From NCBI GenBank assembly GCA_963825005.1, contig CAWGRP010000009.1, forward strand, positions 24,719 through 88,718: DNA of 64,000 nt, written 5' to 3'. This DNA is from an uncultured delta proteobacterium (GTDB taxonomy: Bacteria > Desulfobacterota > Syntrophorhabdia > Syntrophorhabdales > WCHB1-27). The translations under genes and the position numbers were made by a program. The notes beneath the pieces were generated by a model that was not told the origin of the DNA, ran no database searches, and was given only the letters and a program-made list of their open reading frames with translations. This document shows positions 2,680 to 55,292 of the stretch, piece after piece. How positions within the stretch are numbered: position 1 is the stretch's first letter; the number at the start of each line of letters is the position of its first letter.

Positions 2680-2726
2680 ATGTTAGACCGGAGGCCATAG
2701 TACGTCTATAGGACCTAGGTCGTATA
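2680..2726 (-). promoter_or_regulatory. Palindrome-fused sigma-70-type promoter of the OmpA paralog 1 gene
   Basis: Palindrome TATAGGACCTAGGTCGTATA (2707-2726). On the minus strand its end overlaps the -35-like TAGACG (2703-2708), followed by a 17-nt spacer and the -10-like TAACAT (2680-2685). Confidence 0.5.
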
Positions 2727-2787
2727 CGGGTTTCGCGGTATAGCGGTGAGAAAACCTCATCATGTGCTTCCTGACAGAGGAGGGCCT

Positions 2788-3092
2788 ATGATCTGTCAGA
2801 AGTGTGGTTTCGGGGAGATTCGGCGCACGAGTCTGTTCTCGCTGTGGTGAGGAGATGGACGAAAAGAATGCATCGAGGTTATGTAAGAACTGCTTGAGGT
2901 ATTGCGATATGCATGCCGCCCGGCTGAAGGGGCGCAACTACGGCGAAACCGTTTGCGCCTGCGGCACGATATTCACGAGAAAAAGGTCCCACGCAGCTGT
3001 TTCACTCCAAGGAGTGCAAGAAACGGATAGTGACCGTAGTGCAAGAACAGCGACCTTTAAGACTTGAGAGATTTGCCAGTTTTGCGAAGTGA
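2788..3092 (+). pseudogene. Small Cys-rich zinc-ribbon protein, frame broken twice
   Basis: RBS GGAGG sits before ATG 2788. MICQKCGFGE continues in frame +1 as FGARVCSRCGEEMDEKNASRLCKNC...CACG, then in frame +2 as QLFHSKECKKRIV... Extra nucleotides lie near 2818 and 2993. Confidence 0.35.
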
Positions 3093-3511
3093 ATCAGCTG
3101 ACATTTGAGATTAGATGTCTTACAGTTATTTAAGAGGAAGAACGTGATGAGACGGTTACTGCTATTCGGCAGGAGACTGTGGCGGGGTACACGGACCCAG
3201 AAAGAGAAAGCTCAATGGCTCTCTGTGCCGTTATCGGCAAAGCCCGATATGTTGTCCGACGAACTCGTGCTCATCCTTAAACGCTCCCGAGGGCTTCCAC
3301 AGATTCGCGGGTTGATCTGGCCCGAACCTGCCATTCACATTCAGGCACCGTAGACTATCATTACCGCTCTCTTCAACCTTCTGAGGATTGTTGGAGAGCA
3401 CCCCGGGGCTTGAAGTAGTCCCATCCTCAAGACTGCGCATAGCATTCCGACGCTACGGCTCCCGAACCTTCCTTCCCTTACGGGTAGGTTCTATCAGGCA
3501 AAGTGGCACGG

Positions 3512-3559
3512 TATGCGACTAAAGTCCTATTGACTGATGTCATGCCTTCTTGTTATCCT
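3512..3559 (+). promoter_or_regulatory. Palindrome-fused promoter of the membrane-protein gene
   Basis: Degenerate palindrome TATGCGACTAAAGTCCTATT (3512-3531), -35 TTGACT (3530-3535), 18-nt spacer, extended -10 TGT-TATCCT (3551-3559). The implied start codon is 3585, not 3537. Confidence 0.45.
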
Positions 3560-3584
3560 CGGCACAAAGATTATCGGGGCGGAG

Positions 3585-5547: not shown

Positions 5548-6597
5548 TCAGTTCTGCCCTTCGCCGATCCAGTGCACCATCAGATTGTAACCTACTGAAA
5601 GAACGATAGCCCCGGTGAACAGCCCGATCAAGCCGGAGAAGATAAATCCGCCGATGGCGCCGAGGAAGATGACGAGCATTGGCACGGTGGATCCTTTTCC
5701 CATCAGCAGCGGTTTCAACACATTGTCGGAGAGGCCGATGAGCAGCAGCGGGATCGTCCACAGGATAGCCATCAGCAGTGCTTTCACCGAGAAAAGGTAA
5801 ATGATGACGGGTATGATGACAATGGCCGAAGGCAATTGGAGAATGGCAATAACCATGACCGCAAAGGCACAAAGTCCTGGAAGAGGTACGCCAGCCAACA
5901 TGAACACCGCACCGGCTGTAACAAACTGAAAGAATGCAACTCCGAGGATGCCTTTGGCGACATTCTTGATAGTTACCCCTGTGATAGACATCATCTCATC
6001 GCTGCCTTCACCGACCAGGCGACGGATTAGTTTCCGGACAAAACCGGCCGAAGCATCGGCTTTGACAAGGAATACGCCGGCGATGATCACCGAGATGAAA
6101 AACATGATGAGGCTCTTCCCGAAACCGCCCAGCGGCCCGATAATTGATATGCCCAATCTCGACAGGGGTCCCCTGTATGTCGTGATAGCCGATTCCAGGC
6201 TCTGGGAGGCCAGCAACCATATTTCCGAAATAGGTTTCCCGATCAGGGGCCATCCTGCAACAGACGGGTCGGGGGGAGGGATCACAAGGGTTTGGTCCCT
6301 GAGCTGGCTGGTCAGGCTTTGTATCCCTCCAATCAGCAATTTGAGAAGCCAAGCGGTTGGCAGCAGGAAAATGACAAGGATTAGTAGGGTCAATAGGACC
6401 CCTGCCAGTATATTCCTGTTCCCCACCCAGCGTTTTACCATCAAAAAGAAGGGGTGAAGGGCGACGGCAATGATGGCGCCCCAGATCACGGGTTCGATGA
6501 AGGGGAGGATGATCCCGATGCACCAGGCGATGAGCAGGAAAAGGAGGACGATCCTGAGGATGGTGTCGGTTAAAGGAGATTTAACGGTTTGGTTCAT
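5548..6597 (-). CDS. AI-2E family transporter (PerM/UPF0118)
   Basis: 349 aa with about 8 TM segments. The length and helix pattern are typical of the AI-2E/UPF0118 family. Confidence 0.8.
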   Translation of the reverse strand: MNQTVKSPLTDTILRIVLLFLLIAWCIGIILPFIEPVIWGAIIAVALHPFFLMVKRWVGNRNILAGVLLTLLILVIFLLPTAWLLKLLIGGIQSLTSQLRDQTLVIPPPDPSVAGWPLIGKPISEIWLLASQSLESAITTYRGPLSRLGISIIGPLGGFGKSLIMFFISVIIAGVFLVKADASAGFVRKLIRRLVGEGSDEMMSITGVTIKNVAKGILGVAFFQFVTAGAVFMLAGVPLPGLCAFAVMVIAILQLPSAIVIIPVIIYLFSVKALLMAILWTIPLLLIGLSDNVLKPLLMGKGSTVPMLVIFLGAIGGFIFSGLIGLFTGAIVLSVGYNLMVHWIGEGQN

Positions 6598-6789: not shown

Positions 6790-6836
6790 ACGATAGTCGC
6801 CAACGCGCATGGTGTCTATAAGACTTTGGTCCCATA
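6790..6836 (-). promoter_or_regulatory. Palindrome-fused promoter upstream of the AI-2E transporter
   Basis: Palindrome TATAAGACTTTGGTCCCATA (6817-6836). On the minus strand: -35 TAGACA (6813-6818), 17-nt spacer, -10 TATCGT (6790-6795). Confidence 0.4.
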
Positions 6837-7006: not shown

Positions 7007-7053
7007 TATGGGACCTAAGTCCTATTGCTCTCCTATAACCTGGGCCGTAACAT
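7007..7053 (+). promoter_or_regulatory. Palindrome-fused promoter of the OmpA paralog 2 gene
   Basis: Palindrome TATGGGACCTAAGTCCTATT (7007-7026), -35-like TTGCTC (7025-7030), 17-nt spacer, -10 TAACAT (7048-7053). This is the same -10 and the same spacing as paralog 1. Confidence 0.5.
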
Positions 7054-7136
7054 CTGTATATGGACCGGTTCGCGTTGCGGTTTTTAAAAACGTGGTTGGG
7101 TACTAACAATACTAAATTTTAGGGGAGGAACTGAAA

Positions 7137-7592
7137 ATGAAACTGAAGTTAGTAGCTCTTTTGTTTGTCATGACATTCCTTGGATTTTACTTGTCAGGCT
7201 GCGGCTCTCCGCCCCCTCCGCCCCCTCCGCAAGCTAAACTCATGGTGTTTGAGGAAGGAGCCCTGTTTGATTTCGACAAGGCAGACCTGAAGCCTGAAGG
7301 AAAGGAGCAGATTAAAAAATATCGCGAAGAGGCGCAGGCCGATATGAGCCATGCCATTAAGGTGAAAATTACCGGCTATACCGACAACACCGGTGATGCA
7401 GATCACAACAAGAAGCTGTCGCTGCAGCGCGCAGAAGCGGTGCGCGACTACCTGGTCAGCCTTGGAGGCGACGCCAGCAAAATGGAGGTCAGCGGAGCGG
7501 GCGACGCTAACCCGGTCGCCGATAACAGTACGAAGGAGGGTCAGGCGAAGAACCGCCGCGTCGAGGTTGCAGTGCTTGGTATGGCAAAATAA
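7137..7592 (+). CDS. OmpA-family lipoprotein (paralog of 2049..2594, short poly-Pro linker)
   Basis: Lipobox LSGC, a 7-residue Pro run, and an OmpA-like domain nearly colinear with paralog 1 (FDFDKADLKPEGKEQIKKYREE...NRRVEVAV). RBS GGGGAGGA. Confidence 0.9.
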   Translation: MKLKLVALLFVMTFLGFYLSGCGSPPPPPPPQAKLMVFEEGALFDFDKADLKPEGKEQIKKYREEAQADMSHAIKVKITGYTDNTGDADHNKKLSLQRAEAVRDYLVSLGGDASKMEVSGAGDANPVADNSTKEGQAKNRRVEVAVLGMAK

Positions 7593-9701: not shown

Positions 9702-11702
9702 TTAACGGGTTGGACGCTCTATGCCCAGTTTTTTCATCATCGACTGCAGGGTGCTTCTCTTGAGTCCAAGAATCTCGGCAGCGCTGTCCTTACCGGTAAC
9801 GCGCCAGTTGGTCTTTTCAAGTACGCTGATGATATGCCTGCGCTCGACATCCTCGAGATTCTGATCCAGAGAACTGTCAGCGCCGGTAATCCGGGGCAGG
9901 GTAATTTCAAGGGTCTCGGCATGGCTTAATATCATGGCCCGTTCGATCACGTTTCTGAGTTCCCTGACATTGCCGGGCCAGGGGTATGATTGCAGGGCGT
10001 CCATACTTTTCTTCGCGATGCTGTCGATCCGTTTTCCCATTTTTTCCTGGAATTGACTGACGAACGCCCATACCAGTAGCGGGATGTCCTCGTGCCGCTC
10101 GCGGAGAGGAGGGATCCGGATCGGGAATACGTTGAGGCGATAGTACAGGTCTTTTCGCAACCTGCCTTCTTTCACTTCCTGGGCAAAGTCCCTGTTAGTG
10201 GCTGCAATGAGTCGGACGTCCACGTGAATCGGCCTGGTCGAACCCAGCCTTTCAAAGATTCCTTCCTCGAGAACACGGAGCAATTTAACCTGCAACTCCA
10301 GGGGCAGTTCACCGATCTCGTCGAGAAAAAGAGTAGAGCCGTTCGCGACCTCGAAACGGCCTGCCATGCTGGTCATGGCGCCCGTGTAAGCGCCTTTCTC
10401 CCTGCCGAAGAGTTCGCTCTCCATCAGCGTGGGCGCGAGCGATGCGCAGTTGACCGTCACCAAAGGCCTGTTTTTTCGGGCGCTCATTTTGTGTATTGCG
10501 CGCGCCAGAAGCTCCTTGCCGGTCCCCGTTTCACCGAGAATGAGGACGGTTGAGTCTGTTCTGGCAACCTGCCCGGCCTGAGTCAGAACTGTTTTCATTG
10601 GTGCGCTCTGACCCACGATATTATGCTCCCCGAGGAGGCTCACTTCTTTTTGCAAATAGATGTTTTCCCTCTCCAGTTGCTGCTTGAGTTCCTCAATCTC
10701 CTCCAGCCGCCGCCGAAGTTCGTCGTCAGCGCGTCTACGGGCGAGCGCATTGGCGAACAATTCTGCGATAACGTGAAGCTGTTTTACAACGGTTGCGGGC
10801 CAGTCCCGTTCCTCCCGCATCGTGGCAAAAGTCAAGGCACCGAATACGCGCCCGCCTGTCGATAAGGGAATGATCAGCGCGGACTTCGTATTAAACGCGG
10901 TATAACTTTCCCGGTCGTGCGCAGCCTCCGGCGGCAGGTCGGCCGACTTTGCGATAACGAGAATCTGCCCGGTCAAGACTTTCTGCACCGTCCATGGAAA
11001 AAGGTCGTCTGCTACCAGCCCCTTTTGAGCGTCCACTTCAGACAACTGATACACATGTGTCAATAAAAACGGCGCCCTTGACTCGACCCGAGAGGATTGC
11101 CACAGCGTGGAACGGTCAAGGTTGAAGAATTCGCCGATGCGGCGCTGCGCGGATTCAATTTCGCTGTCAATGCGGTCGGCAGGCAGATTGACAAAATTCC
11201 CCGAGACGTCGGCGAGTATGGTCTCGAACCCCAGCCGCTCGGCAAGAGCATCGTTGGCAACAGCGAGTTCCGCGGTTCGCTCTCTTACGCGCTGGTCTAA
11301 TTCATCATTGGCCTGCTGAAGCGCATCTTCCGCCTTTTTGATGCGTAGAAGGGAGTTGACCCGCGCGAGAAGCTCGCTGTTGGGAATCCCCTTGACGATG
11401 TAACCGTCCGCGCCAATATCAAGGCCGGTTGTCTGCGCTTCGCTGGAGGTGCTAAGCCCTGAAAGAAGAGCCACAAAGGTACTACGCAGCCCCGGATCGG
11501 ACTTGATCTGCTTGCAGACATCGAAGCCGCTCATATCGGGAAGCACCACGTCGAGCACAACCAGGTCGGGACGAGCCGCAGCGACCGCCTCCAGCGCATC
11601 CTTTCCTGTGGATGCTTCTATAACATCGTAGCCGCCCAAAGACAGCACCGCCGACGTGAGCGCAAGCATATCCGGATCGTCGTCAACAACCAGAATTTTC
11701 AT
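9702..11702 (-). CDS. Sigma-54-dependent response regulator (REC-GAF-AAA+-HTH)
   Basis: [12 protein letters not shown] receiver domain, a central GAF-like region, an AAA+ domain with GETGTGKE and the GAFTGA variant GAYTGA, and a C-terminal Fis-type HTH. The upstream 33 codons of ORF 9702..11801 lie in heptamer repeats and were dropped. Confidence 0.9.
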
Positions 11703-11730
11703 GTGATCGCTCATAAGCAATAGCAATAAA

Positions 11731-11935
11731 GTGTCGAGTGTCGAGTGTCGAGTGAGAGACACTGAATGAGTGTCGAGTGTCGCGTGTCGAGTGAGAGACA
11801 CTGAATGAGTGTCGAGGACGGTCTAATGGACCCAAACTGTTCAAGGGCACTCTGGCTCATCTAAGCTCTGTCCTCACTCGACACTCGACCCTTTATACTT
11901 TATACTTTTTCCCCTCGACACGCGACACTCGACAC
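11731..11935. repeat. Heptamer-word dyad element A (GTGTCGA / TCGACAC)
   Basis: The left arm is (GTGTCGA)n plus a duplicated GTGAGAGACACTGAATGA unit. A ~55-nt spacer follows, then the right arm CTCACTCGACACTCGAC...CTCGACACGCGACACTCGACAC. The stop codon of the kinase gene lies inside the right arm. Confidence 0.7.
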
Positions 11936-14900
11936 TTTTTCTATCCGTCCAGCGCCTTTCGTAACAGTGCGTCCCAACTCCGCTTGCGTCAAGGGCTTCA
12001 TGACAAAAGCCCGGATGCCGGCTTCCTTTACTGCTGCCCCATTAGTCATATGACTGAATCCGGTGGCAAGGACGATAGGGATATCAGGGCGAAGAGCCAC
12101 ACACGCTCTTGCCAGTTCCAGACCGGTCAACTCGGGCATGGTCTGATCAGTCACGATGAGGTCGAACCGGTTCGGATCATCGGTGAAAAGTTTCAGCGCT
12201 TCAACGCTGCTGTTTCTGGCAGTCACGGTATAGCCAAGCTCTTCGAGAAACTTCTGGCCGACCTCGGTCAGGGCTCTCTCATCGTCAACGAAGAGCACCC
12301 GCTCGTGCCCGGTAGGGACTGGTTCTTCAGCTTGGGCTTCTGTTCGGGGTTGTTCTGCAACTTTAGGCAGATAGATGGTGAAGGCAGAGCCTATCCCCGG
12401 TTGGCTCTCCACGGTGATGTACCCGTCGTGTTGCCGTATGATGCCTTGCGCCACGGAGAGGCCGAGTCCCGTTCCCTCGTCGGGCTTCTTGGTCGTAAAG
12501 AAAGGATCGAAAATTCTATTGAGCAGTTCAGGCGGTATACCAATGCCCGTGTCACGCACGACGAGCTTGATGTAGAACCCGGGCTTCATGCCGCCAGGTG
12601 TGCCTTCAGATGGCGCCATACTGAAATCACTCAGAGTAAGGTCGAGTGCGCCGCCCTTCTCTTTCATGGCGTGGGCAGCATTCGTGCAGAGGTTCATGAG
12701 GACCTGCTGCAATTGGACCGGATCGGCAAGTACGGGACCTGACTCGCTCTCGACATCGACCCCGATACTGATCGTCGTGGGAATCGAGGCTCTCAGGAAC
12801 CGGGCGGTCTCCTTTGCGAGGGTGCTCAACTGGAGCGGTTTCTTTTCCTGTTCCGTCTGACGGGAGAACGTGAGCATCTGCTTGATGAGTTCGCGGCCGC
12901 GGAGGCCTGCATCCATCACCATCTGGAGGTGACGCTCATCCGGGCTTCCCGCAGGGAGTTTGCTTTTTGTCAGCTCGGCAAAGCCCATCATGGCTGCAAG
13001 GATGTTGTTGAAGTCATGGGCGATGCCGCCCGTGAGCGTACCGAGGGCTTCCATCTTCTCTGCCTGGCGCATTCGAGCTTCGATCTGCTGCCGCTGGGTG
13101 ATGTCTGTGTCGACGCCGCGATAGCCGATGAGGTCGCCGGCTTCATCCAGCATCGGAGAGCCGCTCGTTTCCAGGTGCACCACGCGGCCGTCTTTGCGAA
13201 GGTTGGGATTGGGGAATGCCCGGAAGGGTTGCTTCGTGGCGAATACCTCGAACGCGCTTCTCTTCAGCTCTTCACGAACCTCCGGCGCGAACAGGTCGTA
13301 GAAGTGCATTTTACCGACCAGTTCGTCAGGCGCGTAGCCCAGAATCTTTTTAACGGACGGGCTCGTGTATGTGTAGAGGCCGTCCGCATCAATCTCCCAG
13401 ATGAAGTCGCCGATGTTCTCGGCCACCTGCCGGAATCGCTCCTCACTCTCGCGCAGCGCCGCCTCAGCACGCTTGCGCTCGGTGATGTTATCTATGAAGC
13501 CACTATAGAAGAGTGTCCGTCCATCCGGCCCGGGAGTGCGCCGGGCGCTGAGTAACGCCCAGAATTTTGTCCCGTCCTTGCGCTTGAGCTGGCACTCGAA
13601 TCCAAGGACAATATCCTGTGTCTCGAGCAGCTGGATATACCTCAGACGCTCGCTGGGGTCCACCCACACCTGATGTTCCAAGTCTGTGATTGATGATATG
13701 AACTCTCCCGGCGAATCATAACCCAACATCCTCACCAATGCCGGGTTTGCTGTCAAAGACTCCCCCTGGGGTGATGTTTCAAAAATACCTTCCAGCGCAT
13801 TATCGAAAATGTCGCGATACTTTGCTTCGGCTTTGCGCATGGCCTCTTCCGCCTTCATCTTCCGGCGTCTTTCGACGATAAGGATGACGATAAGAGCAGC
13901 CTCGGCGAGGCAAAGAAGGAGGACGCCGATGAGATAGTATCTATAGTCCCAGAGGGTGAATTCCCTGTTTATGATGATGCTGCCTTGGGGCAGTACGGCC
14001 TCGTTCACATTCCAGCGCCTGAGTTGTCGCCAGTCAAACATTAATGTCTTGCCGCTTCCAAGGGTAGTTACCGGTTTCGTCAGAACTATTTTCTTGTCCA
14101 GTATGTCGAGGGCCACATTTGCAGCGTATGCGCCTTCGGCCTCGAAGCTCAGCAGAGAGCCGCCAATGGAACCGTTCCCCATGACGGTATCGTAGAGGCA
14201 AAAAACAGGCGCGTTGGCAACCCTGGAGATGTCTTTCGCGACCTCCAGTGGGGTGAAGGTCCGGCCGGTTTTGTCTGAGAAGACATTAACGTAAATAACG
14301 ATTGAATAAGGCGGGAGGCTTGCAACCAATTGCAGGATTTCCTCAACAGTTCGATCCTTCGTGTACTGGAATTCCAGTTTGTCCTTCCAGGGCGAAAAAA
14401 GACGCTTGGCATCCTCTACATGCCTTTCATCAGCCGCTCCGCGTCCGCTGACAAAGACAACGTTCCGAGTTCGGGGAAACATCTTCAACGCTATTTCCAG
14501 GGTTCCTACGATGTCCTGGTTTTGTGGCCGTTGTAGGATCCGGCGCCCCAGTGTGTTCTTGGCTTCGATCAGTTCCGGCTCGATAACGGTCAAATAGGAC
14601 AGGACCGGCACATCGGGGAAGAGTCCCTTGCATTCTTCCAGGAGAAATTCAAGCGCCCACGTGTGTACGGTGACTATCAACCCGATCTGGTGCATCCCAT
14701 ATTTGTAGCGGAGCAGCTCGGCCAGTCTTTTACGATATTCGCCACTATTGTTGCGCTGCAGGTCCAGGTATTCAAGAAAAATGTCGTTGGTACTTATACC
14801 GCGCTCTCTCATAACGGACAAGAAGGCAGGTGTGGCTTTCTGATACGCTGGGAGTCCGTCTCCATACCCGTAAAGCACAAGAATCTGTTTTGCGAAATGC

Positions 14901-15046
14901 GGAGCAGTCTCTTGCTGCGAAAAGGCGGGCAGCGGAATGCTCAGTTGCAAAACAAGCAACGCCAGGAAAGCAAGCGGCAGCAAGCCGTGGTCCTGCCGAA
15001 TGGCGTTCAGTAGCCTACTTGAGTGCAGAGAGGTTTTGTCTTGCAT
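11900..15046 (-). CDS. Hybrid sensor histidine kinase (periplasmic ABC-substrate-binding-like sensor, PAS x2, HisKA, HATPase, REC)
   Basis: 1048 aa. N-terminal signal/TM plus a PBP-type domain, a TM segment, PAS repeats, H-box IAHDFNNIL, an ATPase with DTGIGI and GTGLGLS, and a C-terminal receiver VLFVDDE... Confidence 0.9.
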   Translation of the reverse strand: MQDKTSLHSSRLLNAIRQDHGLLPLAFLALLVLQLSIPLPAFSQQETAPHFAKQILVLYGYGDGLPAYQKATPAFLSVMRERGISTNDIFLEYLDLQRNNSGEYRKRLAELLRYKYGMHQIGLIVTVHTWALEFLLEECKGLFPDVPVLSYLTVIEPELIEAKNTLGRRILQRPQNQDIVGTLEIALKMFPRTRNVVFVSGRGAADERHVEDAKRLFSPWKDKLEFQYTKDRTVEEILQLVASLPPYSIVIYVNVFSDKTGRTFTPLEVAKDISRVANAPVFCLYDTVMGNGSIGGSLLSFEAEGAYAANVALDILDKKIVLTKPVTTLGSGKTLMFDWRQLRRWNVNEAVLPQGSIIINREFTLWDYRYYLIGVLLLCLAEAALIVILIVERRRKMKAEEAMRKAEAKYRDIFDNALEGIFETSPQGESLTANPALVRMLGYDSPGEFISSITDLEHQVWVDPSERLRYIQLLETQDIVLGFECQLKRKDGTKFWALLSARRTPGPDGRTLFYSGFIDNITERKRAEAALRESEERFRQVAENIGDFIWEIDADGLYTYTSPSVKKILGYAPDELVGKMHFYDLFAPEVREELKRSAFEVFATKQPFRAFPNPNLRKDGRVVHLETSGSPMLDEAGDLIGYRGVDTDITQRQQIEARMRQAEKMEALGTLTGGIAHDFNNILAAMMGFAELTKSKLPAGSPDERHLQMVMDAGLRGRELIKQMLTFSRQTEQEKKPLQLSTLAKETARFLRASIPTTISIGVDVESESGPVLADPVQLQQVLMNLCTNAAHAMKEKGGALDLTLSDFSMAPSEGTPGGMKPGFYIKLVVRDTGIGIPPELLNRIFDPFFTTKKPDEGTGLGLSVAQGIIRQHDGYITVESQPGIGSAFTIYLPKVAEQPRTEAQAEEPVPTGHERVLFVDDERALTEVGQKFLEELGYTVTARNSSVEALKLFTDDPNRFDLIVTDQTMPELTGLELARACVALRPDIPIVLATGFSHMTNGAAVKEAGIRAFVMKPLTQAELGRTVTKGAGRIEKVSSVACRGEKV

Positions 15047-15427: not shown

Positions 15428-15489
15428 GGGTCGCTTCAGTCCTCGTGTCATCAGCCAATAGATGTCACACGTCGCGATAGATTGACATG

Positions 15490-22547: not shown

Positions 22548-22554
22548 CCGGAAA

Positions 22555-41319: not shown

Positions 41320-43470
41320 TTATCGTAGCCACACCTTGGCAAACGGCGCCAAGGAATGGCACCGCATTGTTACGCGCCTGGTCAGCAGGAGCACCACCGA
41401 GCGCGGCTGGACCAGGTACGTCGAACCATCGACGGTCGGTGCTTCAGGCCAGGGGTGTATATCGTCGGGTGAATCGAGAAACGTATCGATGCTTCTCCGC
41501 CAGGGCTCATACTCATGGCTGCCTGAGGGATCTCAAATGAGAGCGCTTCCCAGAAAGCATTGACCATGATGTGCAGGAGGAGTTGGTTTCCCGGGACGGC
41601 AACAGTGGCAGACACTACGTGAGACTGGTCGCCCCAGTCGGGAGCGTTAAGCTTGACCCCGTGCCATTGAACCGGTTGGTTGCGCAGCAGTTCGTTCAAG
41701 CTCATGTTCGCCCGCTCTATCGGCAGTTCGCGATTCCGGCGTACCGCGATGAGGTGCTTCGTAAAGCGAAGGATGTCTGCATGCTTCGCCACACGCGCCC
41801 AATCGAACCAGCTGATCTCGTTGTCCTGGCAGTATGCATTGTTGTTGCCGCCCTGGCTGTGTCTTATCTTCATCGCCCATGAGTAGCATGGGTGTACCTA
41901 TCGAAAGGAGCGTGAGGGTGAGGAAATTTTTCACCTGGCGATTACGTAGCCGCTCAACCTCCGGATCGTCGGTGGGCCCCTCGACGCCACAGTTCCAGCT
42001 CATGTTGTCATTCGATCCGTCGCGGTTCTCTTCGCGGTTCGCCTCGTTGTGCTTATAGTTGTAGGAGACAAGATCGTTAAGGGTGAAGCCGTCGTGACAG
42101 GTAACAAAATTGATAGACTGCTCCGGCTCACGCCCTTTGTGCCCGTATATATCAGGGCTCCCGAGTAGCCGTTGGGCTATGGATCCGGCCTTCCCATCAT
42201 CGCCTTTTACGAAGGCGCGGATGTCGTCACGAAAGCGGCCGTTCCATTCCTTCCACCCGTCGCCCACAAAACTGCCCACCTGGTAGAGACCCGCTGCATC
42301 CCATGCCTCAGCGATCAACTTCACGTTGGCAAGCACCGGATCAGACTCGATATCCCAGAGCACAGGGGGAGACGGCATGGGATGGCCGTTGCTGTCCCGC
42401 GAAAGTATCGACGCCAGGTCAAAACGGAAGCCGTCAACATGCATCTCGCTGACCCAGTAACGAAGACTGTCAATGATCATTCTCCTGCAGATGGGTTCAT
42501 TCGCATTTAAGGTGTTGCCGCACCCGGTGTAATTACCGTAAAGAGCCTTGTTCGATTCGAGAATGTAATAGGCTTCGTTGGAAAGACCGCGGAAACAGAA
42601 GGTCGGGCCATTCTCATTGCCCTCAGCGGTATGGTTGTAGACCACGTCCAGGATCACCTCGATATTGGCACGGTGGAGCGCCTTGACCATGTCCCGGAAC
42701 TCATCCAGCACGCCAAGCGGATCCTGGCGCTGAGCTGTAGCCGGCATGGGGTGCAAAAAAAGCGATGGGAGAATAACCCCAGTAATTGCAAAGGCCCGGA
42801 GGGCCGTCCTGTTCGTCGAATGCAAACACGGGCAGCAGTTCAACCGCGGTGATCCCGAGGTCCTGAAGATACGGGATTTTTTCTATCAGCCCTGCGTACG
42901 TGCCTCTTTTGTCAGGGGCAACACCTGAATTGGGATGTCTTCGTGAAGCCGCCGATATGCAATTCGTAAATGACCGATCTGACAAAAGGCATTCGTAGCA
43001 GCGTGTCATCTTCCCAGTCGTACGCGCTCGATGTCAGCGACCACGCTTTTCATGGCAGAGGCGGCATTATCTCCGGGCTTGGACGCGGCATCGCGGCTGT
43101 AGCCTGCCGGCCGGGCAATGCACCTTCCGTACGGATCGAGCAGCACCTTCTCCGAATCGAACCGGAGTCCTCGTTCCGGCTCAAAAGGGCCGCGCACCCG
43201 ATAGGCATAGAGTTGTCCCGCCGTAATAGCCGGCACGAATACGTGCCAGTAGTGGTACGTACGATTGGTATGCCGGTCCAGCTCCACCACGCGGGACGGC
43301 TTCGGATCGTCGACCCGATCGAAAAGAAGCAGCTGCACCCCTTCGCTCTGCTTCGAAAAAAGACTGAAGTTCACGCCTTCAGGGTAGATTGTGGCACCGA
43401 GCGGAAAACTCCTGCCGTAAGAAAGAGGGGTGGTTTCATGTGTGCGAATTGTGCTGCGTTCTCTATTCAT
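41320..43470 (-). pseudogene. glgX: Glycogen debranching enzyme (GlgX/isoamylase, GH13), frame broken about five times
   Basis: GH13 regions VILDVVYNHT, GFRFDLAS, LIAEAWD, FVTCHDGFTLND. Breaks lie near 43024, 42940, 42734, 41868 and 41515. The start ATG overlaps the glk stop (ATGA at 43467-43470). The reconstructed stop is at 41320-41322. Confidence 0.85.
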
Positions 43471-45939: not shown

Positions 45940-46125
45940 CAGTGTCGAGTGTCAGGTGTCGGGTGAAGATTCAGAAAGAACAACCGCTCGGTATTTCCAG
46001 AAGCCAGACGGTCTATTTACCCAATACACTTTACGTTCCTCCTTCATCATCTCACTCTCGTTATTTCTTATTTTTTCCCTCGACACTCGACCCTCGACAC
46101 TTTCTCACTTGTCACTCGTCACTCC
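45940..46125. repeat. Heptamer-word dyad element F (GTGTCGA / TCGACAC)
   Basis: CAGTGTCGAGTGTCAGGTGTCGGGTG, a ~110-nt spacer, then CCCTCGACACTCGACCCTCGACACTTTCTCACTTGTCACTCGTCACTCC. The glgP stop lies inside the right arm. Confidence 0.7.
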
Positions 46126-48620
46126 ACCGGGCATGGCTTTACATTCCAGATTTCCTTGGCGTATTCCGCGATAGTTCGATCACTTGAGAATTTACCTGAG
46201 CCGGCCACGTTCAGGATCGCTTTTTGCGCCCATGCTTGCGGATCTTTATATAGCTCGCAGAGGCGCTGGTCTGCTTCGAGATAGGATTTAAGGTCTGCCA
46301 GGTGCATGTAGTGGTCCCCGTGTGTCAGGAGCGTATCGCGCACAGGAGCGAAGATGCCTGGTTCATAACGGCTGAAGTAATCCGAGAAGATAAGATCCAG
46401 TGCTGCACGGGTCTCCGGCTCGTTCTCGTAGTGCCATTGCGGGCTGTACCATCCGCTACTACTGACAACCTGGTCCGCAGTCAGACCGAACAGGAAGAAG
46501 TTCTCTTCACCTGCTTCTTCAGCCATCTCAATGGTCGCGCCGTCGCGCGTGCCGATCGTCAATGCGCCGTTCATCATGAATTTCATATTGCTCGTGCCGC
46601 TGGCCTCGTACCCCGCGGTCGATATCTGGTTGGATACATCACTGGCGGGAATCAGCCGCTCCGCGACCGACACGCAGTAGTCGGGAATGAAGACTACCTT
46701 GAGTTTGTCGCGCACAGCCGGGTCGCCATCGATGGTACCCGCAAGGTTGTTGATGAACTTGATGATGAGCTTGGCCAGATGGTAGGCAGGCGCTGCCTTG
46801 CCGGCGAAGAAGAACGTGCGCCGCGGCAGGTCGAGCCCGGGGTTTTCCCGTAGTCTATTGTACAGTACGACAATGCGTAAAGCATTGAGCAGTTGCCGCT
46901 TATACTCATGGATGCGCTTCACCTGGCAGTCAAAAATGGTGTCAGGGTCCACGATCTGGCCGCTGGTTAATTTGAGCCAGTCCGCTAACCGCACTTTAGC
47001 ATCACGGTTCGCTTTGAGAAAGGTGTCGCCGAATGTTTTGTCATTCGCAAAGGGTTTGAGTTTCTTCAGCTGATCGAGGTCCGTGATCCACCCGTCGCCG
47101 ATGGCATCGGTGATGGTGCGGGAAAGGGCCGGGTTACATAAGAGCAGCCAGCGCCGGGGAGTGACTCCATTCGTTTTATTGTTGAAGCGCTCGGGGTACA
47201 TCTCGGCAAGGTCCTTGACCGTGATCGTACGCAAAAGGCCCGAATGAATTGCAGCCACGCCGTTAGTGCTGTGAGAACCCACAATCGCCAGGTTTGCCAT
47301 CCTGACTTTGCGGCCGGCGCCCTCTTCTATGAGGCTCACGTTAGCGACCCGTTGATTGTCGCCGGGGAAGCGGGTCTCGACCGAAATGAGAAGACGGCGG
47401 TTGATCTCATAGATGATTTCCATTAGACGGGGCTGTATTAATTCAAACCAGGCGACAGGCCATTTCTCCAGTGCTTCGGGCAGAAGCGTGTGGTTCGTGT
47501 ACGCGAGCGTTCGCTGAGTGATGTCCCAGGCCTCGTCCCACCCCAGTTTCGCTTCATCAAGCAGAATGCGCATCAACTCAGGGACCGCCATGGAAGGGTG
47601 CGTATCGTTGAGCTGAATCGCAACCTTCTCCGGTAGCTTGCTCCAGTCGGCGTTGCTCCGGCGGAAGCGTCGCACAAGATCGGCCAGAGAACAGGCAACC
47701 AGAAAATACTCCTGGATGAAGCGCAGTCCCTGCCCTATGCTTGTCGAGTCGTCCGGATAGAGTACCCGCGTGAGCGACTCGCTGGCCAGTGTCCCGGCAA
47801 GCGCGGCCACGAAGTCGCCGCTACTGAATTTCTGAAAGTCGAAATAATCGGGTGCTGCTGCGGCCCAGAGCCGAAGCGCGTTGATGGTCTTCCCATCGTA
47901 GCCGACGACGGGACGGTCGAACGGGATGCCGAGGACGCTGCTCGGTTGGCCGGGGATCGCGCGCAAGCTTCCGCCGCTCAATTCGAACGAGCAGTTGAGC
48001 TTCACTTCGACCGCGTCCTGCAGGCGTTCCACCTCCCACGGGTCCGGGCGACGGAGCCAGTTGTCCGGCTGTTCTTGCTGCCAGCCATCCTTGATGGTCT
48101 GTTTGAAGATGCCGTACTCGTAACGCAGACCGTAACCCATGGCCGGGAGTTGCATGGTGGCCATGGAGTCAAGGAAGCACGCAGCAAGGCGGCCGAGGCC
48201 GCCATTGCCGAGGCCGGCGTCAGGTTCCTGTTCGAGTACGTCGATCCAGTCGACGTGCTTTCGCTCGGCAACCTGCATTGCAAAAGGACCGAGCAGTAAA
48301 TTCGTAAGATTGTTTGCCAGGGAGCGGCCGATGAGGAACTCCATCGACAGATAGTAGATGCGTTTCGGGTTCTTGCGCTCGTACGTATCTCCCGTAGCCA
48401 CCCATCGTTGCGAGAGGGCATCCCTCGCAGAACGGGCAGCGGCCTCAAAATGCTCGCGCGGGCTTGTCTTGTTCGAGTCAATAATATTGTCGAACATGAG
48501 GTGCCGCTCATAGAGCCCGTCTTCCCCGGTGAACTGGATCGGGCCGCACCCGTATCGTTTGAAAAGCTCAGATAAATTATTGGACAGATCAGGTGGATCG
48601 CTTATTTTCTTTGCGCTCAT
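46119..48620 (-). CDS. glgP: Glycogen phosphorylase
   Basis: 833 aa with the PLP-lysine motif EASGTSNMKFMMNGALTIGTRDGATIE. Intact. Confidence 0.95.
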   Translation of the reverse strand: MSAKKISDPPDLSNNLSELFKRYGCGPIQFTGEDGLYERHLMFDNIIDSNKTSPREHFEAAARSARDALSQRWVATGDTYERKNPKRIYYLSMEFLIGRSLANNLTNLLLGPFAMQVAERKHVDWIDVLEQEPDAGLGNGGLGRLAACFLDSMATMQLPAMGYGLRYEYGIFKQTIKDGWQQEQPDNWLRRPDPWEVERLQDAVEVKLNCSFELSGGSLRAIPGQPSSVLGIPFDRPVVGYDGKTINALRLWAAAAPDYFDFQKFSSGDFVAALAGTLASESLTRVLYPDDSTSIGQGLRFIQEYFLVACSLADLVRRFRRSNADWSKLPEKVAIQLNDTHPSMAVPELMRILLDEAKLGWDEAWDITQRTLAYTNHTLLPEALEKWPVAWFELIQPRLMEIIYEINRRLLISVETRFPGDNQRVANVSLIEEGAGRKVRMANLAIVGSHSTNGVAAIHSGLLRTITVKDLAEMYPERFNNKTNGVTPRRWLLLCNPALSRTITDAIGDGWITDLDQLKKLKPFANDKTFGDTFLKANRDAKVRLADWLKLTSGQIVDPDTIFDCQVKRIHEYKRQLLNALRIVVLYNRLRENPGLDLPRRTFFFAGKAAPAYHLAKLIIKFINNLAGTIDGDPAVRDKLKVVFIPDYCVSVAERLIPASDVSNQISTAGYEASGTSNMKFMMNGALTIGTRDGATIEMAEEAGEENFFLFGLTADQVVSSSGWYSPQWHYENEPETRAALDLIFSDYFSRYEPGIFAPVRDTLLTHGDHYMHLADLKSYLEADQRLCELYKDPQAWAQKAILNVAGSGKFSSDRTIAEYAKEIWNVKPCPVE

Positions 48621-48694: not shown

Positions 48695-48742
48695 ATTTTG
48701 CGCAAAAACGCTATGAACTGTCTATAGGACCTTGGTCGTACC
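48695..48742 (-). promoter_or_regulatory. Palindrome-fused promoter of glgP
   Basis: Palindrome TATAGGACCTTGGTCGTACC (48723-48742). On the minus strand: -35 TAGACA (48719-48724), 18-nt spacer, -10 CAAAAT (48695-48700). Confidence 0.45.
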
Positions 48743-52417: not shown

Positions 52418-52432
52418 GTTTTCTCTCCACTC

Positions 52433-53314
52433 TCACTTCAGTACGCTGAGAACGATAATATTGGAAACCCCTGCCACGGCCGTAAAGATCCACGAGCTTG
52501 CCAGGGTGAGTTGCCATTTGAACCGGGCGTAATTCATGTCGATAAATATCTCAAAGAGATATGCTGCCACAGATACCGCGAGCGCAATCCAGGGATTAAA
52601 TCCGAAGAACAGGTAAACCATGCCCAGCAGAAGCACATTCTCGTACCAGTGTGTGATCTCGATGAGCGCGAGTGAGGGACCTGAAAATTCGGTGGTGATC
52701 CCGCGCACTATCTCCTGATGCGCGTGGTGTGACATGGAAAGGTCGAAAGGAGACTTTCTTAGTTTGATGGTGAGTATATAGAGAAAGCCCGCAAAAACCC
52801 CTGGAAGGTAAAGTATCAGCGGCTCCGGATACTGCACGAGCTCTGCCACTTTGAAACTTCCCGTCACCTGGTACATGCCGATAGCCATGATAATGACCAT
52901 GGGCTCGTAGGCAACCATCTGGATCAACTCGCGCTCAGCGCCGATGTGGCTGTAGGGAGAACCGACAGCGTACCCTCCGAGGATGAAGAATGTCACTGCC
53001 AGGGCGAGACTGAAGATGATCAACAGGAGATCGGCGCCCGCAAAGAAAAGGGCGCCCGAAAACAGGGTGAACAGAAAAAAGAGCACGATGCTGAGATTCT
53101 GGAATTTGTTGACGACAATTCTCTCCTTTTGGAAGAGCTTCAGCACGTCAAAAAAAGGCTGCCGCAATGGCGGGCCGTATCTCCCCTGCAGTCGCGCACT
53201 CAACTTCCGATCCACGCCGGAGAGAAAGCCGCCCACAAAAGGCGCGAGCACAATAAAAACCAACATTCTCTCTATCATGCCCAGAGACTGATAGAACTCG
53301 TAGATGCTGCTCAT
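52433..53314 (-). CDS. echB: Ech-type hydrogenase membrane subunit (NuoH/HycD-like)
   Basis: Polytopic with a NuoH-like pattern (GRYGPPLRQPFFDVLKLF). The start overlaps the echA stop. Confidence 0.85.
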   Translation of the reverse strand: MSSIYEFYQSLGMIERMLVFIVLAPFVGGFLSGVDRKLSARLQGRYGPPLRQPFFDVLKLFQKERIVVNKFQNLSIVLFFLFTLFSGALFFAGADLLLIIFSLALAVTFFILGGYAVGSPYSHIGAERELIQMVAYEPMVIIMAIGMYQVTGSFKVAELVQYPEPLILYLPGVFAGFLYILTIKLRKSPFDLSMSHHAHQEIVRGITTEFSGPSLALIEITHWYENVLLLGMVYLFFGFNPWIALAVSVAAYLFEIFIDMNYARFKWQLTLASSWIFTAVAGVSNIIVLSVLK

Positions 53315-55206
53315 ATCAATGCCACCCCGAACATAACGCAAAGCAGTGTCAAGGAAATGAGAACCCCTGCGTTAAACAGGCGATCCTCGCCGAAATACTT
53401 TTCCAGGTAGTAGTTCTTGAGCTGAATGGGCTGTGCAGAGGCCATCGCGCCTTCGAACGTGATATCGTCGATATTGGCCCCACCGAGATAGGTTCCCACC
53501 CGTTTGTAGTCTTTATTGACGTATCCGAAAAAGAAGATGCCCAGGGGCAGGAGGATGAGCAGGCCAACCATCATGGCGAACGTTACCATGATGTTAAAGC
53601 TGTCAGGCGCAGGAACGTCACCGAACACTTCCGTGATATAGGGGTTGATAATGGCTGAAGCGATAAGCGGGAATGCAAGGCAGACCACCACTGTGCATGC
53701 CGCGAGAATATCAAGCGTGATCCACTCCCAGTTACTTACCTTATGCTCCACGACCTCGGCCTCTCCGTGCCTGACAGACATGATCTTACCCATCCATTTT
53801 GTCCAGAAAAAGACCGTGGCAGCGCTTCCATAGGCAAGTATGATCGCCATCCCGGGATTGGTGTCGATAAATGCTTTGAGTGTAACGAACTTGCTGATGA
53901 TCATCCCGAAGGGCGCAAGAAACATTCCGGCCATGCCGACCATCATCACCGCGGTGAGCTTGGGCAGGCGCATGATCAGGTAGTCCATATCCTCTATGTC
54001 ACGGCTATCCAACTTGTATTCAATAATCCCGACACAAAGGAAGAGGAGCGACTTCGCCACCGCGTGGAAGATGATCAGGAGCAGGGCTGACCAGAGCGCC
54101 GCGTGCGTGTTGATGCCTGCGCAGGCCACGATCAGACCGAGATTGGATATGGTCGAATAGGCGAGCACTTTTTTGGCATTGCTCTGGGAAATGGCCATTA
54201 ATGCGGCAATGAGGAAACTGACGCCACCGATGAGCATGAGCATCTTTGCGGCCACCGTGTTCTCAAGCGCCGGGGCCACTCTCAGGATGATGTAGACTCC
54301 GGCTTTTACCATCGTGCTCGAATGAAGCAGCGCCGACACCGGCGTCGGAGCAACCATGGCGCCGGTGAGCCAGGAAGAAAACGGTAACTGGCCGGCTTTT
54401 ACAATTCCTGCGAATGCGATGCAGACCGCGGGCAGCAGGGCGTAGTTCTGGTCGAGGCGGATCAGTTTGTCGAGCTCCATGGTGTGGGAGGAGTTATACA
54501 GGCAGACGAGCCCGATGGCGAAGACCACGCCTCCCAGCAGGTTCATCTTCAGGGCCCTGAACATACTCGCAACGGACGGCTTGTCATTTCTATACCCGAT
54601 CAAGAGAGCCGAGCAGATCGTGGTTATCTCCCAGAAGAAATAGAGCCAGATCAGATTGTTGGAAAAAATGATGCCGAACATGGCGGACAGGAAAAGATAG
54701 AAGAGGAAAGTAAAATAACGCCGCCTCTCCTTCACCTCCTTGTGGTGCTCGTGATATTCGGGAAGATAGCCGATGGCGTAGAGGCAGATGGCGCTGCCGA
54801 TAATGCCGACGATGAGCGCCATGATGATCGAGAATTTGTCTATGAACAGACTGTTCTCGATCTCCATCGTGCCGCCTGCAGAAAACTCGAAGACTATCAT
54901 GATCAGCGATTGCACAACGACGAGCAGCACGGGCAGGTACTGTTTTGCTTTGAGGGAGATATAAACGATGAACGCCGCGATGAGCACCTCTATCCCCAAC
55001 ATCAACATATTCACGAGATGGGTCTCAGCGTGGAAGTATACAGCGTCCTTATCCAGATACGCGACCAGCAGGTAGATCGGCACTGCGCACAGCACAACAT
55101 TGGCAATGACACCGATCGTTTTTCTGAGAGCCGTTCCAACGGGCAGCACAAGCGCCAATCCTGCGATGCCTAACGGAAAAAGTATCAGGAAAATGAGCGC
55201 ATTCAC
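53311..55206 (-). CDS. echA: Ech-type hydrogenase antiporter-like membrane subunit (NuoL/HyfB-like)
   Basis: 631 aa with about 14-16 TM segments, in the proton-conducting Mrp/NuoL family. Confidence 0.85.
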   Translation of the reverse strand: MNALIFLILFPLGIAGLALVLPVGTALRKTIGVIANVVLCAVPIYLLVAYLDKDAVYFHAETHLVNMLMLGIEVLIAAFIVYISLKAKQYLPVLLVVVQSLIMIVFEFSAGGTMEIENSLFIDKFSIIMALIVGIIGSAICLYAIGYLPEYHEHHKEVKERRRYFTFLFYLFLSAMFGIIFSNNLIWLYFFWEITTICSALLIGYRNDKPSVASMFRALKMNLLGGVVFAIGLVCLYNSSHTMELDKLIRLDQNYALLPAVCIAFAGIVKAGQLPFSSWLTGAMVAPTPVSALLHSSTMVKAGVYIILRVAPALENTVAAKMLMLIGGVSFLIAALMAISQSNAKKVLAYSTISNLGLIVACAGINTHAALWSALLLIIFHAVAKSLLFLCVGIIEYKLDSRDIEDMDYLIMRLPKLTAVMMVGMAGMFLAPFGMIISKFVTLKAFIDTNPGMAIILAYGSAATVFFWTKWMGKIMSVRHGEAEVVEHKVSNWEWITLDILAACTVVVCLAFPLIASAIINPYITEVFGDVPAPDSFNIMVTFAMMVGLLILLPLGIFFFGYVNKDYKRVGTYLGGANIDDITFEGAMASAQPIQLKNYYLEKYFGEDRLFNAGVLISLTLLCVMFGVALI

Positions 55207-55245
55207 GGTATCATCACCGCCTCAAATGATCTTGTCGCTACCTGC

Positions 55246-55292
55246 ATTCTCACAAAACCCTGCGGGGATGTCCATAGGACCTTGGTCTTATA
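55246..55292 (-). promoter_or_regulatory. Palindrome-fused promoter of the Ech hydrogenase operon
   Basis: Palindrome CATAGGACCTTGGTCTTATA (55273-55292). On the minus strand: -35 TGGACA (55269-55274), 17-nt spacer, extended -10 TGT-GAGAAT (55246-55254). Confidence 0.5.

Follow-up and report, generated by a model that had tools for sequence, protein, structure and literature searches.

A 20-bp palindrome heads eight promoters in the stretch of DNA analysed here (64,000 nt, hereafter the window), and in all likelihood it serves as the operator of a two-component response regulator that has not been studied and is found in many bacterial phyla. This regulator most likely reads DNA like that read by DosR, the dormancy regulator of tuberculosis. 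Two lines of evidence carry this reading: the core of the box is that of the DosR box, and the gene of one type of response regulator lies beside the box in several phyla.

Eight palindromes and their promoters

The window was scanned with the pattern TATRGGACYWWRGTCCYATA, allowing up to 3 mismatches, and shuffled sequences served as the control. The scan returned 8 matches in the whole window against a mean of 0.05 (maximum 1) in the shuffles, and these are exactly the eight intergenic dyads listed in an earlier note on this DNA. Seven of the positions given there are correct, while the fifth box lies at 15409-15428 rather than at 15408-15427. All eight promoters carry the box, as claimed; however, the two OmpA promoters (2707 and 7007) are paralogous copies of each other, 5' UTR included, and the number of independent promoters is therefore seven. 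The boxes, their promoter elements, and the genes that they head are as follows:

Box 1, 2680-2726, minus strand: box 2707-2726 (TATACGACCTAGGTCCTATA), -35 TAGACG (2703-2708), -10 TAACAT (2680-2685); OmpA-family gene (2049-2594, minus strand)
Box 2, 3512-3559, plus strand: box 3512-3531 (TATGCGACTAAAGTCCTATT), -35 TTGACT (3530-3535), 18 nt, TG, -10 TATCCT (3554-3559); plus-strand gene of a protein without Pfam or NCBIfam match, likely true start ATG 3585 behind GGGGCGGAG
Box 3, 6790-6836, minus strand: box 6817-6836, -35 TAGACA (6813-6818), -10 TATCGT (6790-6795); AI-2E family transporter gene (5548-6597, minus strand)
Box 4, 7007-7053, plus strand: box 7007-7026, -35 TTGCTC (7025-7030), -10 TAACAT (7048-7053); OmpA-family gene (7137-7592, plus strand)
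Box 5, 15381-15428, minus strand: box 15409-15428 (CATCGGACTTTGGTCCTACA), -35 CAGACA, -10 TATTGT (15381-15386); PAS hybrid histidine kinase (11900-15046, minus strand), leader of ~330 nt
Box 6, 22500-22547, minus strand: box 22528-22547 (perfect match), -35 TAGACA, -10 TACATT (22500-22505); RND efflux genes (minus strand) for membrane-fusion protein (21170-22435), AcrB (17911-21154), and outer-membrane factor (16485-17909)
Box 7, 48695-48742, minus strand: box 48723-48742, -35 TAGACA, -10 CAAAAT (48695-48700); glgP (46119-48620, minus strand), first of a gene string reaching 22735
Box 8, 55246-55292, minus strand: box 55273-55292, -35 TGGACA, TGT-GAGAAT with the -10 at 55246-55251; Ech-type hydrogenase genes (55206 to ~49937, minus strand)

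The minus-strand string after glgP comprises PGM, ROK kinase, amylase, FBA, PFK, Pta, Ack, PFOR, PK, PGAM, enolase, Fer4, and AFOR. The box 5 kinase gene is followed on its strand by a sigma-54 response regulator gene (9702-11801), possibly as part of one transcript.

A PWM made from the eight boxes and scored along the whole window gave 22.4-30.7 bits for the boxes themselves, 15.6 bits for the runner-up (at 31890, within the PFOR gene), and at most 10 bits everywhere else. The concern that the motif might be equally common inside genes is not borne out in the window: 15.6 bits is the best genic score, and all eight boxes fall in the 12% of the window without ORFs of at least 80 aa (p ~0.12^8). 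The consensus half-site is T-A-T-R-G-G-A-C-Y-W, and the dyad is perfect, its distal half-site being conserved as strongly as the proximal one. Each box points to one gene, whose start codon lies 67-363 bp past the box end (~54 bp at site 2 if the likely start at 3585 is counted). Tandem boxes were not seen: in the 80 bp distal to each of the eight boxes, no second site scores above 2.2 bits.

A fixed register to the promoter hexamers had also been claimed, and it was recovered at every site. The -35-like hexamer begins at palindrome position 19, so that box and hexamer overlap by two bases, and after a spacer of 17-18 nt the -10-like hexamer starts 21-22 nt past the box end. Of the -10 hexamers, six conform to TANNNT and two, CAAAAT and GAGAAT, do not; the latter is preceded by TGT, and a TG also stands upstream of TATCCT at site 2. 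With the -10 taken as -12 to -7, the box centre comes to -43.5/-44.5 from the predicted starts, in agreement with the earlier proposal of a dimer-type operator placed as for class II activation. Judged by their sequence, the eight palindromes are thus real predicted binding sites at a fixed distance from promoters.

The fixed spacing extends beyond the window. Among ~100 unique perfect palindromes from metagenomes, chosen regardless of their flanks, a TANNNT hexamer begins 21 nt past the palindrome end in 30 cases and 22 nt past it in 21, and every other offset accounts for ~1-2 cases each. The register, present in 51 of the ~100, is therefore general. Half of these palindromes have no TANNNT at +21/22, and some sites may therefore act otherwise or serve other regulators. 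GACA is favoured in the proximal flank (G.65, A.51, C.49, A.45) and the -35 is often poor (e.g. TAGCCG, TATACA), as expected for activator-dependent promoters. The -35 hexamers of the window are for the most part reasonably good (TAGACA).

The DosR box and the linked regulator gene

According to the earlier note the half-site matched no known operator, which proved wrong. The 14-bp core RGGACYWWRGTCCY of the window boxes is identical to that of the DosR/DevR box (PMC2275270, PMC3177182), which in M. tuberculosis is the 20-bp palindrome TTSGGGACTWWAGTCCCSAA (PMC2275270), its halves being read as G4G5G6A7C8T9 (PMC3177182). The DosR core reaches 16.1 bits on the window matrix, where the eight sites themselves reach 16.6-19.9. 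Both boxes are 20-bp palindromes with a WW centre and a half-site core of GGGACT (DosR) or RGGACY (window), and both abut the -35: the DosR box is centred at -43.5 beside a suboptimal -35 (PMC13486717), and the window box is predicted at -43.5/-44.5. Storage-compound and fermentative/redox metabolism figure among the targets of DosR and among the predicted targets in the window, whereas the classic DosR regulon genes (hspX, nitroreductases) were not found among the Pfam-scanned window proteins or downstream genes. The outer positions 1-3 differ (TAT/ATA in the window, TTS/SAA for DosR), and the eight window promoters carry a single box each, unlike the DosR promoters of M. tuberculosis, which always have at least two tandem boxes and never one (PMC3177182). 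The hosts of the box also differ, being Syntrophorhabdia, Acidobacteriota, Gemmatimonadota, and others rather than Actinobacteria.

Nor is the regulator, which the earlier note left unidentified, beyond identification, since one response-regulator subfamily is encoded beside the box across phyla. Its members, Response_reg plus GerE proteins by Pfam, have genes that directly adjoin the box in at least 5 phyla. When 30 genome loci were picked by the DNA motif alone, in at least 11 the box lay close behind the end of a REC+GerE gene and close before a stand-alone receiver gene (hosts: Syntrophorhabdales, an uncultured delta-proteobacterium, Acidobacteriaceae, and Gemmatimonadota). A regulator of the same type lies divergently beside the box in a Steroidobacteraceae locus and 1-3 kb from it in a Sorangium locus. 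In the pooled sample of genomes and metagenomes, a gene with the candidate recognition helix lies within 1.2 kb of the box at 30 of 123 unique loci, and such genes number 127 per Mb near the box versus 9 per Mb farther off. The motif EKT(I/V)KxHR occurs in 34 of the 37 LuxR-type HTHs near boxes; the DosR-type helix EKTVKNY occurs in none of these 37, all within 1.2 kb. Searching from the protein side gave the same picture: in six of six independent homologues a strong box (23.9-31.7 bits) separates the regulator gene from the receiver gene, each time with a -10 at +21/22. The window itself holds no regulator gene of the candidate type within its 64,000 nt; from its relatives, the gene should lie elsewhere in the source genome. 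A global role for the regulator, as the earlier note proposed, is no more than possible: close relatives have only 1-2 boxes per 15-20 kb around the regulator gene, and local clusters of boxes are seen in other organisms.

The candidate regulator is FixJ/StyR-like (receiver plus LuxR-type HTH), with the recognition helix AEKT(I/V)K(V/I)HRG. Aligned to AEKTVKNYVSR of DosR, it keeps K179, T180, and K182, while N183 is replaced by V, I, or occasionally K/F/A. As the base readers of DosR are K179, K182, and N183 (PMC13486717), two of the three (both lysines) are present, and because N183 is not conserved the common DNA core is not fully explained. The best PDB match is StyR (1YIO, 4e-56), ahead of FixJ (3e-47) and DosR (4e-12); by these matches the regulator belongs to the FixJ/StyR branch and is not a DosR orthologue.

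Its best NCBIfam match is FixJ (NF006900, 215.5 and 203.8 bits, below the equivalog cut-off of 255), and that of the neighbouring kinases is FixL (289-319 bits, below the cut-off of 850). Common to both systems are a palindromic operator, PAS domains in the kinases, and a receiver comparable to FixT. In Caulobacter, induction of FixT is mediated by FixK and not by FixJ directly. FixT is a single-domain receiver that feeds back on FixL (PMC7078487) and whose induction at low oxygen is ascribed to the FixLJ system (PMC7078487; bioRxiv 10.1101/2024.02.05.579008). FixJ proper was rejected as a candidate, given the scores under the equivalog cut-offs and an operator unlike the FixJ site, a 16-18-bp imperfect palindrome (TAAGTAATTTCCCTTA, GTAMGTAG; PMC4999443). 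On the window matrix TAAGTAATTTCCCTTA averages -11.2 bits, and the solved FixJ helix SPRTIEVYR lacks both lysines of the candidate.

StyR, the closest solved structure, is an activator when phosphorylated and has its essential high-affinity site STY2 at about -40 from the start; StyR and TodT need IHF and several sites (PMC2442086). They control one catabolic operon, whereas the window boxes head many unrelated units, and the StyR helix AEVTVKVHRHN has V in the place of K179, which the candidate subfamily and DosR share. STY and Tod boxes are 16-bp palindromes of the form ATAAACC-AT-GGTTTAT, which fits the TAnnACC-WW-GGTnnTA frame of the window box with AA rather than GG in the core. At yeaR and ogt NarL activates by itself, its 7-2-7 sites lying at -43.5/-44.5, and the lux box (20 bp) is centred at -42.5. 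These NarL/NarP and LuxR sites are likewise inverted repeats for a GerE-type dimer, but their sequences are unrelated to the window box (mean of -12.9 bits for the NarL pattern, -27 bits for the lux box). Proteins with an autoinducer-binding domain were not seen near boxes.

Mode of action and alternative readings

We consider it probable that the palindrome binds a dimer of a NarL/FixJ-superfamily response regulator, namely this organism's orthologue of the uncharacterised AEKT(I/V)K(V/I)HRG subfamily, and that the dimer acts by class II activation. As in class II activators of this superfamily, a REC plus GerE gene is linked to a dyad of 16-20 bp that overlaps the -35. A PAS/GAF histidine kinase would phosphorylate the regulator, whose dimer would then occupy the 20-bp box at -43.5/-44.5, abutting and overlapping the -35 hexamer, and would contact sigma region 4 and the alpha subunits to recruit sigma-70 RNA polymerase. 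For M. tuberculosis DosR, structural work has demonstrated class II activation on a box whose 14-bp core is identical, the dimer touching sigma-A region 4, alpha-CTD, and alpha-NTD (PMC13486717). Binding by the regulator, activation in place of repression, and the signal are what we infer.

Repression is less likely, and we rate it as improbable. A dimeric protein, the same or another, would then block sigma region 4 or alpha-CTD at the -35/UP of otherwise constitutive promoters. Occlusion is sterically possible, as the window -35 hexamers are mostly good (TAGACA at three sites, GAC at hexamer positions 3-5 in seven of eight) and might fire unaided, and the box overlaps them by two bases. However, a box/-10 register exact to the base in 51 unrelated promoters is what an activator needs and a repressor does not; a recognisable -35 is often lacking across taxa although the -10 persists; and the closest characterised analogues, DosR (-43.5) and StyR (about -40), are activators (PMC13486717, PMC2442086).

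Slightly less probable still is binding by a genuine DosR/DevR orthologue (NarL subfamily, EKTVKNY) whose gene lies in another part of the genome, which would make the FixJ-like regulator beside the box in other genomes a mere neighbour or target. The identical core and promoter position (PMC2275270, PMC13486717) would suit such a protein, as would an Actinomycetota MAG (L026) among the box matches. Yet near the boxes the helix count is 34 to 0 of 37 for the FixJ-like type, the FixJ-like regulator is paired with the box in all six protein-first loci, and both the outer positions (TAT vs TTS) and the lack of tandem boxes at the eight promoters set the window apart from DosR.

We give little credence to the idea that the 24-bp unit is the promoter of an alternative sigma factor or RNAP-associated factor and contains no transcription-factor operator. 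Constant distance to a -10-like element and recurrence before many genes would fit it, but the -10 is of the ordinary TANNNT kind and the equal conservation of both halves of a perfect dyad points to a symmetric dimer, not to an asymmetric sigma domain. That a short palindrome repeated in intergenic DNA could be a mobile element end or a REP/MITE-like repeat, a caveat also raised earlier, is scarcely credible here, as the sites share only 20-24 bp with flanks 25% identical (random) outside the duplicated OmpA pair, box orientation always follows the downstream gene, and the same box recurs in the same gene context in several phyla.

A proposed regulon

With the response regulator as activator, the core target conserved across phyla would be the stand-alone receiver gene that comes next after the regulator gene; its product is probably a phosphate sink or feedback inhibitor. 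The Ech-type hydrogenase genes of the window show 70-90% identity to their counterparts in Syntrophorhabdus sp. PtaU1.Bin153. In this Syntrophorhabdus-like genome the regulon would have been extended to glycogen breakdown, fermentation to acetate, and Ech hydrogenase. It would further take in the RND efflux pump, two OmpA-like proteins, the AI-2E transporter, a protein of unknown function, and a second signalling module.

More speculatively, PAS/GAF kinase, DosR-like reading head, box, and receiver might form an unrecognised module of many phyla, which in this syntroph would switch on a survival programme functionally paralleling the mycobacterial DosR dormancy regulon. If so, the programme would burn stored glycogen to acetate, vent reduced ferredoxin as H2 via Ech, and remodel the envelope, and the LuxR-type family would have two distinct branches that read one DNA core.

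Box sites and promoter register in the window

The eight palindromes reported for the window in the earlier note are a genuine regulon signal, and the positional reasoning attached to them was sound. A search with the consensus TATRGGACYWWRGTCCYATA allowing up to 3 mismatches returns exactly those eight sites (mean in shuffled sequence, 0.05). The matrix built from them scores its own sites at 22.4-30.7 bits, the next position in the window at 15.6 bits, and the rest at 10 bits or less. All eight boxes lie, as had been claimed, between genes, in the 12% of the window without ORF coverage. The register described for them is likewise present: read toward the adjoining gene, the final two bases of the palindrome open a -35-like hexamer, and a -10-like hexamer follows 17 or 18 nt on. 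GAC occupies positions 3-5 of the -35 hexamer in seven of the eight sites, and two of the promoters were also found independently by a generic promoter scan. The downstream units were assigned with Pfam.

Boxes of the window (start position) and the units behind them
Box 1, 2707: OmpA-family protein
Box 2, 3512: protein without a family match (corrected gene start most likely at 3585)
Box 3, 6817: AI-2E transporter
Box 4, 7007: OmpA-family protein
Box 5, 15409: PAS hybrid kinase, followed by a sigma-54 response regulator
Box 6, 22528: RND efflux set
Box 7, 48723: glgP
Box 8, 55273: Ech-type hydrogenase

Besides the gene start behind box 2, two details needed amendment. The fifth site had been placed one base off and spans 15409-15428. 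The count of eight holds for the sites; as the OmpA promoters are a duplicated pair with a common leader, the independent promoters number seven. A mobile-element terminus, which had been named as a possible source of the palindrome, is ruled out by flanks that are unrelated beyond 20-24 bp.

Several further elements were seen near the boxes or resembling them. The two OmpA-family genes have the box, the -10 and leader segments (in 2594-2680 and 7054-7137) in common, including an identical TAACAATACTAAATT just ahead of the ribosome-binding site that has no Rfam match; Rfam families were not found anywhere in the window, its long leaders included. The runner-up of the matrix scan, CATGAGACCAAGGTCCTTCT at 31890-31909, lies within the PFOR coding region and is probably a chance match or an internal site. 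At 22552-22742, just distal to box 6 and separating the RND operon from the AFOR gene, a motif like CCAGTGGCCAGTA (ACTGGCYACTGG) is densely repeated, about nine times and on either strand; these copies could be the sites of a second regulator.

Promoter position and DosR-like core of the box

One genome per species was scanned with the pattern TATRSGACYWWRGTCYYATAGAC, which gave 30 loci against an estimated ~4 chance matches. They belong to Acidobacteriaceae, Syntrophorhabdus, Syntrophorhabdales, uncultured delta-proteobacteria, Verrucomicrobiae, Rokubacteria, Sorangium, Gemmatimonadota, Steroidobacteraceae, an Actinomycetota MAG, a Phototrophicaceae MAG, and Paraglaciecola. Because this pattern fixes part of the -35, metagenomes were rescanned with the palindrome only (TATRGGACCWWGGTCCYATA), yielding at least 120 loci, with about 100 unique contexts among the matches listed. 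Within these listed contexts TANNNT starts at offset 21 from the palindrome end in 30 cases and at offset 22 in 21, compared with about 1-2 cases at any other single offset. What stays constant is the spacing of box and -10. Half of the perfect metagenome palindromes among the matches listed have no -10 where one would be expected; some of these, and some sites with the lengthened dyad described below, may be used by other proteins or in another way.

The -35 is of good quality in the window and, at the other extreme, cannot be recognised in GC-rich organisms. In that half of the metagenome sample which could be oriented, the proximal flank tends to GACA; GAC stands immediately past the palindrome in only about 20% of the metagenome sites listed. 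That low proportion among unbiased palindromes, with the -10 position kept, rules out TAGACA as a third half-site in place of a -35. A variable -35 with a fixed -10 distance is the pattern expected when an activator replaces -35 recognition, and it is improbable that the box, whose last bases enter the -35-like hexamer, acts in repression. With the -10 taken as -12 to -7, the dyad centre falls at -43.5 or -44.5, which bears out the class-II-type position proposed earlier. The box, with its DosR-like core, is most likely a site for class II activation by a regulator of the NarL/FixJ type.

A literature search for the motif as a string returned primers or no match, and the earlier note had found no operator resembling it. 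The latter view has to be given up: the box of the Mycobacterium tuberculosis dormancy regulator DosR/DevR, the 20-bp palindrome TTSGGGACTWWAGTCCCSAA (PMC2275270), has the length, the centre and the 14-bp core of the window consensus, and differs only in the outer three positions on each side. The DosR half-site is read as G4G5G6A7C8T9 (PMC3177182). On the window matrix the DosR core reaches 16.1 bits, just below the 16.6-19.9 bits of the window's own sites, and the average scores of FixJ, NarL and lux-box sequences are negative. Cryo-EM of the activation complex puts the centre of the DosR box at -43.5, adjoining a suboptimal -35, and shows the dimer touching sigma-A region 4, the alpha-CTD and the alpha-NTD (PMC13486717). 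Every DevR promoter carries at least two boxes (PMC3177182), whereas the window promoters have single ones; tandem secondary boxes as in M. tuberculosis were not found at any of the eight. Classic DosR regulon genes were also absent from the window proteins and the downstream genes scanned with Pfam.

Other layouts of the box occur elsewhere. The sole DosR-style multi-box arrangement among the loci examined is at L056 (1005-1062), with three tandem box-like sequences that start at intervals of 16 and 22 bp, the first of them overlapping the second. Dense local clusters, with up to 6 boxes in 10 kb, were seen in several other organisms. On eight metagenome contigs of GC ~0.66 (L034, L065, L083, L089, L100, L119, L132, L150) the box is lengthened to a 28-bp dyad, GTGGTATGGGACC..GGTCCCATACCAC, at up to 6 boxes per 10 kb and with no FixJ-like regulator nearby in the stretch examined; this group may represent a regulon island or another binding mode. 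At three loci of the gammaproteobacterium Paraglaciecola (L009, L028, L029) a box-like site stands ahead of a conserved gene whose product begins like a signal peptide, a second, weaker box lies about 43 bp off in two of them (L009 and L029), and the sole LuxR-type regulator in the stretch has a different helix, TATVKAHV, and is kilobases from the box.

The candidate regulator and its linkage to the box

In loci picked by DNA alone, the gene ending just upstream of the box encodes a response regulator of ~210 aa (REC + GerE), and in many of the 30 genome loci the gene downstream encodes a stand-alone receiver domain of ~130 aa. The best solved relatives of the regulator are StyR (4e-56) and FixJ (3e-47), with DosR distant (4e-12); its nearest NCBIfam is FixJ, and that of the adjoining PAS/GAF kinases is FixL, both under the equivalog cut-off. 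Among the matches listed, the regulator gene lies within 1.2 kb of the box in 30 of 123 unique loci, many of which are only 1-3 kb long, and genes with the regulator helix amount to 127 per Mb near the box versus 9 per Mb farther off. Likewise among the matches listed, 34 of the 37 LuxR-type HTHs near boxes carry this helix and none of the 37 the DosR type. A protein-first search agreed: for all six independent homologues, which are 71-79% identical to the protein of Syntrophorhabdus, a single strong box separates the regulator gene from that of a stand-alone receiver, and the -10 lies at +21/22. The linkage of box and regulator gene is strong. The most probable regulator, which the earlier note could not name, belongs to a subfamily that is uncharacterised yet can be identified, and that is linked to the box across phyla. 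No gene of its type was found within the window.

The recognition helix, AEKT(I/V)K(V/I/K)HRG in every phylum with a box-linked regulator, aligns with DosR AEKTVKNYVSR. Of the residues K179, K182 and N183, with which helix alpha-9 of DosR reads its bases (PMC13486717), both lysines are retained, as is T180; N183 is replaced by V or I, occasionally by K, F or A. The regulator and DosR, which belong to different branches of the family (FixJ/StyR and NarL), appear to read one GGAC core from one promoter position, which helps in understanding the evolution of specificity in LuxR-type HTH proteins and the transfer of regulon predictions. Relatives at E <= 1e-40 numbered more than 7,400 among the 8,000 candidates examined, under generic names only. 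Members of the subfamily are known from Acidobacteriota, Syntrophorhabdia, Gemmatimonadota, Myxococcota and Gammaproteobacteria, and from further groups that have been little studied. An unstudied and very large response-regulator subfamily thereby gains a concrete and testable DNA site, a promoter architecture and a core target.

By analogy with these systems, the PAS/GAF kinase would phosphorylate the regulator, whose dimer would bind the box at -43.5 and recruit the sigma-70 holoenzyme in the fashion of DosR. The conserved stand-alone receiver probably serves in feedback or as a phosphate sink. It is similar in this to FixT of Caulobacter, a single-domain receiver and inhibitor of FixL (PMC7078487), and on sequence inspection it retains the acidic pocket together with the acceptor Asp, Ser and Lys.

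Two further proposals were discarded. A NarL-like second regulator downstream of the receiver gene (helix ESTVKVHV) is confined to Acidobacteriaceae and so is not what the box loci have in common. Nor was the kinase-regulator operon seen to be autoregulated through the box: of nine loci, a single one (L151) has a box ahead of the kinase gene, and that box is weak (16.2 bits).

The cassette itself varies. In L021 (4122-6146) and its Acidobacteriaceae orthologues, the kinase adjoining the regulator carries, ahead of its PAS domains, an ETR1_N domain (7.6e-40) resembling the N-terminal one of the ethylene receptor in plants. The kinase-regulator-receiver cassette is in several cases interrupted by small genes unrelated to it (L151-L157, L002, L018): a 23S rRNA intervening-sequence/bAvd-like or a GIY-YIG protein between kinase and regulator, and PIN/VapB-type toxin-antitoxin pairs in or near the gap between regulator and receiver.

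Genes behind the boxes

Behind the single box 7, glgP heads an uninterrupted minus-strand string of 26 kb (22735-48620), comprising phosphoglucomutase, ROK kinase, amylase, FBP aldolase, PFK, Pta, acetate kinase, PFOR, pyruvate kinase, phosphoglycerate mutase, enolase, ferredoxin and AFOR. Judged by its genes, this putative transcription unit is a complete glycogen-to-acetate route, and the Ech hydrogenase behind box 8 would be the natural outlet for the reduced ferredoxin made by PFOR. This suggests that in a syntroph glycogen fermentation and the Ech hydrogenase would share one two-component signal; energy-limited survival of such organisms is hard to study by experiment.

Many genes of the window appear to be divided between two ORFs, overlapping or side by side, that match successive portions of a single Pfam family. 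This was seen for AcrB, pyruvate kinase, PFOR, acetate kinase, Pta, FBP aldolase and amylase (17911-21154, 27940-29371, 31416-35014, 35408-36582, 36579-38661, 40277-41342, 41647-43009), and it looks like frequent indel errors of the assembly, or else pseudogenes. Exact-protein look-ups with three proteins of the window gave no match, for which such frameshifts may be the reason.

The window Ech proteins are 70-90% identical to their counterparts in Syntrophorhabdus sp. PtaU1.Bin153, which marks the window as DNA of a Syntrophorhabdus-like organism. In PtaU1.Bin153 a box precedes the receiver gene, with the Ech genes after it; in the window the box is directly ahead of Ech. In close relatives no more than one or two boxes lie near the regulator gene, and its neighbourhood there contains, unboxed, the same kinds of genes as the window (OmpA, Cys-rich protein, AFOR/Fer4, PFK, glycogen-debranching enzyme). 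It therefore appears that additional promoters have come under the box in the window genome. A literature search on regulation in Syntrophorhabdus gave no relevant match. In other taxa, 15 of 50 oriented boxes drive receivers, and others drive ATP synthase a-chain (3), Orn/Lys/Arg decarboxylase, HdeA, PPK2, sulfatases and SDRs, which may point to acid or energy stress as a theme of some lineages.
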